Of a stretch of DNA of 64,000 bases, positions 55,581 through 56,154 are shown piece by piece. Made by a program: the position numbers and the translations under genes. A model generated the notes under the pieces. That model was not told the DNA's origin, ran no database searches, and was given only the letters and a program-made list of their open reading frames with translations. Position 1 is the stretch's first letter, and every line of letters begins with the position of its first letter. The stretch is from Escherichia coli (GTDB lineage: Bacteria > Pseudomonadota > Gammaproteobacteria > Enterobacterales > Enterobacteriaceae), in the NCBI RefSeq assembly GCF_030013205.1, contig NZ_CP122648.1. One strand, 5' to 3'.

Positions 55581-56154
55581 CAAAGAAAAATACAAGCGGA
55601 ATGTTTATAAAATGATGTTGGAATGTAAACAAAGAGAGGTAATGCCAGGGGATATAAACGATTATTCCAGGTACAAAGATGGGATTGTTTACAACGAGCC
55701 ATGTGTTCTTGCCAGATGCCGCGTAAACGCCTTATCCAGCCGACAAAACTGTCCAGACTCAATGCATCAGAGCTTCCATGTAAAACTGATAAGCGGGTGT
55801 ATCAAGCAATTTCGTCCATCCGCGATTATCAAATCTAACTTTTTGCCCGGAACATAATAACAGCTCGGGTGTCGGTGGCGTCAAAGTCGCTGAAGCGTTC
55901 CCCGAAGGCCGGGGCAGCCCACATGGATGTGGGCTGAGGGCGCGTCTTACAGGACATTACCTCGCGCCCGACCCGGTAGCCGAAGGGGATAAGCTGAAGG
56001 TACCGCGCAGCGGCGATTTTGTTCGCCAGAGCCCGGGGTGCAGGGGGTGGCGGCGATTGGCCGCCCCCTGCACCATTCAATTTATATGGCGAGGCACATT
56101 AAGGGAGCGCAACCCGCTGCTGAAGCCAAACAAAACCGCCGCAGGCTAAGTCCC

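Follow-up and report, generated by a model that had tools for sequence, protein, structure and literature searches.

The TRIP1 repeats of Escherichia coli, first listed by Rudd (1999) and treated by Li et al. (2024; PMC10888264), have 62-65% G+C and a very stable predicted fold, and are substrates of rearrangements between copies. They have been placed between aqpZ and lysO (TRIP1a), 41 bp after putP, between that gene and efeU (ycdN) (TRIP1b), after dusC (TRIP1c), between alx and sstT (TRIP1d) and between copA and ybaP (TRIP1e) (PMC10888264). Here, we consider a GC-rich tract in a 64,000-nucleotide stretch of an E. coli genome (contig NZ_CP122648.1; the whole stretch is ‘the window’, with positions counted from its first base), which sits between efeU (54671-55510, minus strand) and putP (56155-57663, minus strand) and which, judged by its sequence and position, is the TRIP1b member of this already known family, also called RRS (replication risk sequence).

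The second name comes from Pham et al. (2023, PMC10287960; 2024, PMC11194060), who observed two sharp peaks of RecA and single-stranded DNA-binding protein (SSB) on single-stranded DNA (ssDNA) at lysO and dusC, named the 222-bp repeats there RRS, equated them with Rudd’s TRIP1 and mentioned ‘a third partial repeat’. The G-rich strand carries GGGGGTGCAGGGGGCGGCGG, a predicted former of a G-quadruplex (G4), and at both native loci serves as template for the lagging strand; RRS blocks DNA polymerases I, II and IV in vitro and polymerase III in vivo, and when inserted elsewhere in the G4-lagging orientation gives rise to RecA/SSB gaps of up to ~2 kb; furthermore, at least one RRS is required unless a 200-kb region is amplified (PMC10287960, PMC11194060). 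In reactions of purified replisomes, gaps form at nearly every encounter if the lagging-strand template is the G strand and in about two thirds of encounters if it is the C strand, and neither strand acts from the leading-strand template (PMC10287960, PMC11194060; Kusi-Appauh et al. 2026, PMC13308219). The RRS authors’ only other bacterial sequence programming a replication-associated gap is the pilE G-quadruplex of Neisseria gonorrhoeae; this, however, is an unrelated short G4 without the 270-nt fold described below, and serves antigenic variation. A further sequence family, of similar fold, is TwoAYGGAY (Rfam RF01731), a probable RNA from gut metagenome, gamma-proteobacteria and Clostridia with a long P1 helix and two AYGGAY loops (Weinberg et al. 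2010).

Identity of the tract between efeU and putP

We assign the tract to TRIP1 because of direct sequence identity together with locus. The window element is 90.2% identical to K-12 TRIP1a over 215 nt, 86.2% to K-12 TRIP1c over 253 nt and 81.9% to TRIP1d over 276 nt, with the two arms of K-12 TRIP1b matching it at 97.8% and 87.5%; the best copy in K-12 is the one between lysO and aqpZ. Its conserved end, at 56113/56114, lies 41 bp from the putP stop (56155), which is the published TRIP1b position. A first-pass annotation, made by a model from the letters alone, had marked a box at 55860-56100 as a structured element, with the look of an intergenic repeat or a structured RNA; the conserved core exceeds that box on both sides, and weaker similarity reaches to ~55845 and ~56135. 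The jump in composition that it described is also present, G+C running at 0.61-0.66 over 55850-56100 (100-nt windows) against 0.35-0.49 over 55500-55850, in the AT-rich spacer to the left, and averaging 0.63 across the element.

Both of the hairpins named at the outset are found where they had been placed. The perfect one has 10-bp complementary arms, cagcccacat at 55915-55924 and atgtgggctg at 55927-55936, with a 2-nt gap, although a realistic fold would have 8-9 pairs and a loop of 4-6 nt; the second, GGTGCAGGGGGTGGC...GCCGCCCCCTGCACC, includes one G-U among its pairs. As RNA, the plus strand folds at -134.5 kcal/mol (z = -5.25, with none of 200 dinucleotide shuffles as good) and the minus strand at -117.2 kcal/mol (z = -3.2). 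With DNA parameters, the two strands of the window copy give -68.6 and -63.3 kcal/mol (z ~ -4.7 for both), those of K-12 TRIP1a giving -83.6 and -79.9 kcal/mol (z ~ -7). The fold thus exceeds chance on both strands and, as RNA, does so more on the plus strand.

That the tract is an intergenic repeat, as had been suggested, is borne out by its distribution: a 226-bp query has matches in 5425 of 5426 complete E. coli genomes, with 1-9 interspersed places in each (median 3), so that the element is clearly not unique, and a search for a second copy within the 64-kb window returned none. The more specific suggestion of a REP/BIME-like element did not survive. REP units are likewise intergenic, GC-rich, palindromic, multi-copy and usually downstream of genes, but they measure ~35-40 bp, follow another consensus and occur in hundreds of copies, whereas the family in question is one of ~260 bp; no REP-type match falls inside 55845-56135, and the naRNA4 model matches 55705-55741 only (27.2 bits, threshold 59.5). 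This last site is a degenerate REP palindrome, GGCTGGATAAGGCGTTTACGCGGCATCTGGCAA, on the minus strand and 115 bp from the element; it shares the variable spacer segment with TRIP1b and is separate from it.

The conserved fold and its G-rich tract

A pattern scan of one genome per species gave 71 loci, in Escherichia, Klebsiella, Raoultella, Enterobacter, Leclercia, Silvania, Atlantibacter and Pseudocitrobacter, with copies of 262-278 nt (two with insertions, 345 nt) that share 58-92% identity with the window copy; because positions 55906-55940 are set by the search pattern, conservation within them is circular, but not that outside them. A family profile run with nhmmer added 12 copies of a more divergent ‘type B’, every one of them paired head to head with a type A neighbour. 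Three further copies sit on contaminated-looking, non-enterobacterial assemblies, namely a 583-bp Bacillus sp. contig (L060; E. coli-like, 88% identical to the window copy) and metagenome-assembled genomes of Sporobacter (L040; Klebsiella-like, 75%) and Desulfacinum (L016; cut by the contig end), and are most likely contamination.

Across 65 copies, RNAalifold returns a shared multi-helix fold of ~270 nt. Its components are the long helices that close the structure, a pair of small hairpins bearing GGA in their loops, a further small hairpin (CCGC/GCGG), an extended G/C hairpin and a hairpin at the 3′ end. In this structure 95% of paired cells can pair, against 39-45% when the partners are slid; 31 pairs are changed on both sides against 9-14; and the covariation score is 0.284 against ~0.05, with the observed values reached by none of 500 shuffles. 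Selection has therefore acted on intrastrand pairing, and the strong structure proposed from the single sequence is upheld by its relatives. Closing helices 1-4 are paired in 85-99% of cases, both partners having changed in 15 of their 23 pairs, and helix 15, at the 3′ end, reads GCUCC/GGAGC in some copies and GUUCAC/GUGAAC in others. The GGA of the helix 7 loop is retained even in divergent copies outside the selection made by the search pattern, and the apical CAGGA of the second small hairpin, at a position which that pattern does not constrain, is invariant in the alignment.

The plus strand of the window is the G-rich strand, termed RRS-G4 in the RRS papers. Allowing for two mismatches, the published motif has a single match in the 64 kb and none in 100 shuffles, and the G4Hunter maximum of the window copy, 1.80, compares with 1.84 for K-12 TRIP1a. 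What had not been described is that this ‘G4’ tract makes up one side of a hairpin that covaries: a hairpin of the 56037-56074 type, with 10-18 pairs, is predicted in 64 of 65 copies, through 42 distinct sequences whose arms change together. Wobble within the stems is asymmetric, with 78 G-U against 26 A-C on the plus strand, and we take the G strand, therefore, to be the one whose fold is selected; G-T is likewise the most tolerated mismatch in folded DNA, such that the asymmetry cannot separate RNA from ssDNA.

The window copy (Table 1) forms 61 of the 68 consensus pairs, as compared with 68 of 68 in K-12 TRIP1a and TRIP1c. Its second small hairpin has a C.A mismatch (55950/55956) in the apical stem and a loop one base shorter than in those two copies; in addition, GGGAGCGCAA is without its partner GCGCTCC, which was lost with the deletion of 11 nt between direct repeats of CCCTGC, near 56066. 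A match in E. coli copies between TTGCGCT in the left flank and GGAGCGCAA at the right end was entertained as a pair of terminal inverted repeats and then abandoned, since the right end has an internal partner, GCGCTCC, with which it covaries.

Table 1. Parts of the TRIP1b copy in the window and the reading frame called across it.
Feature	Position	Strand	Basis or remark
TRIP1b/RRS core	55856-56113	+	Alignments with K-12 copies; conservation profile over 69 copies; published locus
Closing helices, 5′ halves (TGGCG, CAAAGTCG, CTGAAGC, TCCCC)	55876-55903	+	Pair with 55985-56028
Closing helices, 3′ halves (GGGGA, GCTGAAG, CGATTTTG, CGCCA)	55985-56028	+	Pair with 55876-55903
Perfect hairpin (helix 7), loop AUGGAU	55915-55936	+	6 of 9 pairs changed on both sides
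Second small hairpin GGGCGCG...CGCGCCC (helices 8-9), apical CAGGA at 55950-55954	55938-55969	+	Consensus fold
Small hairpin CCGC/GCGG (helix 10)	56003-56013	+	99.6% paired; 2 pairs changed on both sides
G-rich tract CGGGGTGCAGGGGGTGGCGG	56034-56053	+	18/20 match to published G-quadruplex motif
Long G/C hairpin of 15 pairs with an 8-nt loop; G-rich tract as its 5′ arm	56037-56074	+	Fold prediction
3′ domain remnant, ending GGGAGCGCAA (56103-56112)	56075-56113	+	Alignment with K-12 TRIP1b and strain H240
81-codon open reading frame, by-product of GC richness	55835-56080	-	Reading-frame list; Pfam; indel and codon-position tests

Probable fork orientation and decay of the window copy

The explanation that we favour, at a probability of roughly 0.72, is that the tract is a TRIP1b copy of the TRIP1/RRS folding repeat, that the family acts as a replication roadblock, and that the window copy is a weak or silent paralogue. 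For the family, the mechanism with most support is the blocking of lagging-strand synthesis by a folded single strand. As published for the lysO and dusC paralogues, unwinding by the replisome would allow the G-rich strand to fold when it serves as lagging-strand template, the folded strand would block the lagging-strand polymerase, and the block would leave a gap of up to ~2 kb, loaded with SSB and RecA, which has been proposed to relieve topological stress around the terminus.

The window copy has 86-90% identity to these paralogues, a G tract with two mismatches and two strands that each fold stably as ssDNA, but it differs from them in orientation. The gene order in the window is efeU, putP, putA and the K-12 fork travels putA, putP, efeU; the window thus runs opposite to the K-12 fork direction and, assuming no local inversion, the plus (G) strand serves as template for the leading strand, in contrast to the RRS loci, where the G4 strand is template for the lagging strand. 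The GC skew of the plus strand points the same way (-0.014 over the whole window and -0.02 to -0.06 over 24-64 kb). [quoted passage not shown] Nor does the window copy belong to the symmetric, inverted pair that lies ~650 kb either side of dif: its locus is equivalent to 1.081 Mb in K-12, 166 kb closer to the terminus than RRS-lysO (0.915 Mb), and on K-12 coordinates it would be ~0.5 Mb from dif. Because of this orientation and of the lost helix, the window copy is probably a weak or silent trigger of gaps. Skew in the flanks of copies from other genera was too noisy a guide to orientation, K-12 copies with 1-kb flanks giving the wrong sign, and we used skew for the 64-kb window only.

Several points weigh against the explanation we favour. 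Inverted RRS elements showed no RecA or SSB peak in vivo (PMC10287960, PMC11194060), such that an element oriented like the window copy may have no effect on the fork, and the RRS papers touch on TRIP1b only in passing, through the partial copy of K-12. For what such a noisy proxy is worth, flank skew suggests that both replication orientations are common in other genera. Quadruplex propensity is not conserved across the family, with G4Hunter falling below 1.2 in ~20 of the 65 copies, and it is the hairpin that is better conserved than quadruplex potential. Finally, the C-A-N-GGA-Y-G loops of both small hairpins are fixed while their stems covary, even at ~45% divergence; the roadblock model leaves these fixed loop sequences unexplained.

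Comparing the efeU-putP spacer among E. coli strains, as had been recommended, reveals a hypervariable region with at least five alleles, the variable segment being window positions 55618-56150 (compared at L083, L001, L084 and L085). Three of the alleles derive from one intact form, by alignment of the window, K-12 and strain H240. The H240-like spacer, of ~656 bp, holds TRIP1b complete. That of K-12, of 542 bp, is without ~122 bp (window 55919-56039), in which the two small hairpins and the first G run would lie; this 146-bp, internally deleted copy is the published form of TRIP1b. The window spacer, of 644 bp, keeps the centre but is without 11 nt of the 3′ domain, being the 5′ half of the last helix. 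Near-full spacers of the window kind occur in 947 of the 5426 complete genomes. Of the remaining alleles, one of 219 bp has neither TRIP1b nor REP and carries an ordinary terminator hairpin directly after putP, and one of 2.67 kb, in O157:H7 EDL933, holds a 447-residue hypothetical gene and a 63-bp TRIP1 remnant (L085 5695-5756).

The window copy would thus descend from an intact third copy resembling that of strain H240, having retained a near-canonical G tract and the central domain that is missing from K-12 TRIP1b; it is probably a decaying paralogue, whose main practical effect may be homologous recombination with other copies.

As to its surroundings, efeU is intact here, with a 279-codon frame, and is annotated as a pseudogene in K-12 MG1655. 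Elsewhere in the window, GC skew is +0.09 at 16-24 kb and otherwise negative, and an island that is 100% identical to swine enterotoxigenic E. coli strains carries YagK/YfjJ and DUF3987 genes, an IS30 (28757-29987, with 31-nt inverted ends) and two IS1 copies (~31367-32039 and ~39679-40341).

Competing readings and meaning for the family

A different account of the same fold is that the element encodes, or lies within, a structured RNA of the TwoAYGGAY type, whose plus-strand transcript would offer two GGA loops to a CsrA dimer, as a small CsrA-binding RNA or part of a CsrA-responsive 3′ untranslated region (UTR); on this account, replication would be affected only incidentally, by a very stable, GC-rich fold. 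An Rfam scan of the window region (E up to 10), proposed at the outset, gave nothing relevant, and the likeness emerged once intact paralogues were scanned: RF01731 aligns end to end with the central domain, always on the G strand, at 33.1 bits for TRIP1d, 30.9 for TRIP1c and 30.6 for TRIP1a, below the gathering threshold of 43 (E = 0.0014 in a 361-nt search). Two type B copies from Pseudocitrobacter exceed that threshold, at 49.2 bits, and one from Enterobacter reaches 37.2. The family resembles the Rfam description in its long closing helix around two hairpins with AUGGAU or AGGGAU loops, and in strand; both GGA loops are invariant in all aligned copies, type B included, while the stems covary, and the excess of G-U over A-C falls on the strand that would be transcribed. 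Furthermore, UUACAGGGAUGU in TRIP1a agrees at 11 of 12 positions with RUACARGGAUGU, the consensus for CsrA from in vitro selection (SELEX). RF01731 belongs to clan CL00106 together with PrrB/RsmZ, and binding of TwoAYGGAY by CsrA has been predicted (Gardner and Eldai 2015).

Against this, the window copy itself scores just 21.0 bits; its long closing helices and its first loop, AUGGAU (55923-55928), are present, but the second loop, CAGGAC, is damaged, being one base short above the mismatched stem. TRIP1/RRS also has additional 3′ domains, the G/C hairpin and the terminal hairpin, outside the Rfam model. A sigma-70 promoter scan of both strands of 55450-56250 found no promoter-like site, 5′ flanks are not conserved between copies, and the family has no general intrinsic terminator. 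A literature search for transcripts, or for CsrA binding by crosslinking and immunoprecipitation (CLIP), at lysO, dusC and aqpZ found nothing usable. As noted above, G-U excess does not discriminate, G-T being tolerated in folded DNA as well. Orientation is also random with respect to neighbouring genes: copies were convergent in 26 cases, tandem sense in 9, tandem antisense in 9 and divergent in 2 (by a crude reading-frame caller), with the plus strand of the window antisense to both putP and efeU, a pattern more in keeping with an element acting at the DNA level, or with a tolerated insertion, than with a strand-specific part of a 3′ UTR. The published experiments on paralogues concern DNA. 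At E. coli scores below threshold, the RNA is a candidate only; a structured-RNA nature would be a minority possibility, and the CsrA account of this locus is, in our view, unlikely.

We might nonetheless speculate more broadly that TRIP1/RRS is the enterobacterial branch of the TwoAYGGAY family; selection would then maintain the ~270-nt fold with its two GGA loops, and not a G-quadruplex, with the loops read by a sequence-specific partner, CsrA on a transcript being the published prediction. We regard this proposal as doubtful, if a shade less so than the narrower account. In a weaker form, the block would be the covarying hairpin fold itself, and the extra copies (TRIP1b and TRIP1d) would persist only in the non-gap orientation. 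The resemblance to TwoAYGGAY appears to be new: we did not find it linked to TRIP1 or RRS in any paper, and a full-text search for ‘AYGGAY’ returned no paper on either.

It is improbable that the element is simply a selfish, non-autonomous repeat, spread as folded ssDNA or by recombination in the manner of REP/RAYT or IS200/IS605 and without host function at the locus. The variable copy number, which rises to 12 places in one K. pneumoniae chromosome, is what such a repeat would show, as are sites that are non-orthologous across genera, tandem and head-to-head pairs, a preference for positions downstream of genes and decay at putP-efeU by slippage deletions. Yet neither putP-efeU nor alx-sstT offers a clean empty site or a target-site duplication, the whole variable segment being exchanged; in the putP-efeU allele without the element, 533 bp are exchanged for 99 bp and no insertion boundaries can be defined. 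With terminal inverted repeats also wanting, the features of a miniature inverted-repeat transposable element are absent. Among E. coli copies, every type keeps to a locus of its own and differs from the other types by 6-18%, which implies that none has moved recently; no associated transposase was seen adjoining copies, and a covarying, multi-branch fold of 270 nt exceeds the needs of transposase-recognition hairpins.

Some observations on individual copies belong here. In K-12, the alx-sstT spacer (L082 ~1190-1330) has another palindromic repeat, CTCCCTCTCCC...GGGAGAGGG...GGGGTGAGGG, where other strains have TRIP1d. A direct tandem of two near-identical copies (1484-1758 and 1921-2195, 437 bp apart) lies downstream of a mechanosensitive channel gene in K. 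pneumoniae (L007). With the G strand up, flank skew is negative in 13 of 14 Klebsiella copies (L007-L010, L035-L038, L068-L073), and hints, through a noisy proxy, at a preferred orientation opposite to that of canonical E. coli RRS. The type A/B pairs of Pseudocitrobacter, Atlantibacter, Silvania, Leclercia and Enterobacter quasihormaechei all stand head to head (12 of 12; left copy minus, right copy plus) with short spacers (L022 1870-2428, L029 2345-2969, L031 12578-13289, L050, L051, L055, L056, L058, L074, L076, L032 and L030). At two Enterobacter loci (L012 750-949; L063 3656-3739), matches to C4 antisense RNA, c4-a1b1 and isrK, which are prophage immunity RNAs, lie 100-300 bp from copies. 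Plasmid carriage was considered and rejected, the plasmid matches being mostly chromosomes or chromosome fragments filed as plasmids, with no evidence of such carriage.

Very little favours a transcription terminator or 3′-end stabiliser of putP, despite the element beginning 41 bp beyond the putP stop and a terminator-like site being called at 56037-56074: that site is on the plus strand and putP on the minus, its T-rich tail exists only through the 11-nt deletion of the window allele, and the 219-bp spacer allele without the element has a terminator of its own. The other terminator-like site called in 55450-56250, at 55570-55552 on the minus strand, is outside the element.

That the 81-codon open reading frame encodes a conserved small protein can be dismissed, for although the frame is open, and some genome annotations call hypothetical proteins across copies, a Pfam scan found no family, indels relative to the window copy have lengths of 1, 2 and 0 modulo 3 in 311, 108 and 9 cases, variation is nearly flat across codon positions (entropy 0.60/0.64/0.72) and the frame is broken in K-12 TRIP1a and TRIP1c, all as the first-pass annotation’s label of artefact had anticipated.

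For annotation, then, the tract is a named repeat across which no gene should be called, with a nearby but separate REP, in a hypervariable spacer. For the folding-repeat explanation that we favour, the comparative data constrain the RRS mechanism, through a fold that covaries from genus to genus, a supposed G4 tract that forms one arm of a conserved hairpin, and loops of fixed sequence; the natural alleles at the locus, namely intact (H240-like), 3′-helix deleted (window), centre deleted (K-12) and absent, provide test material. A head-to-head A/B pair, for its part, would place a G strand on the lagging-strand template whichever direction the fork arrives from. Should the TwoAYGGAY proposal prove true, at least part of the conditional essentiality and topology phenotypes of RRS would come from an interaction between the loops and a partner, and not from polymerase block alone. 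Three literatures, on TRIP1 as a recombination repeat, on RRS as a programmed and conditionally essential gap and on TwoAYGGAY as a candidate CsrA RNA, have apparently been dealing, without mutual citation, with one family.

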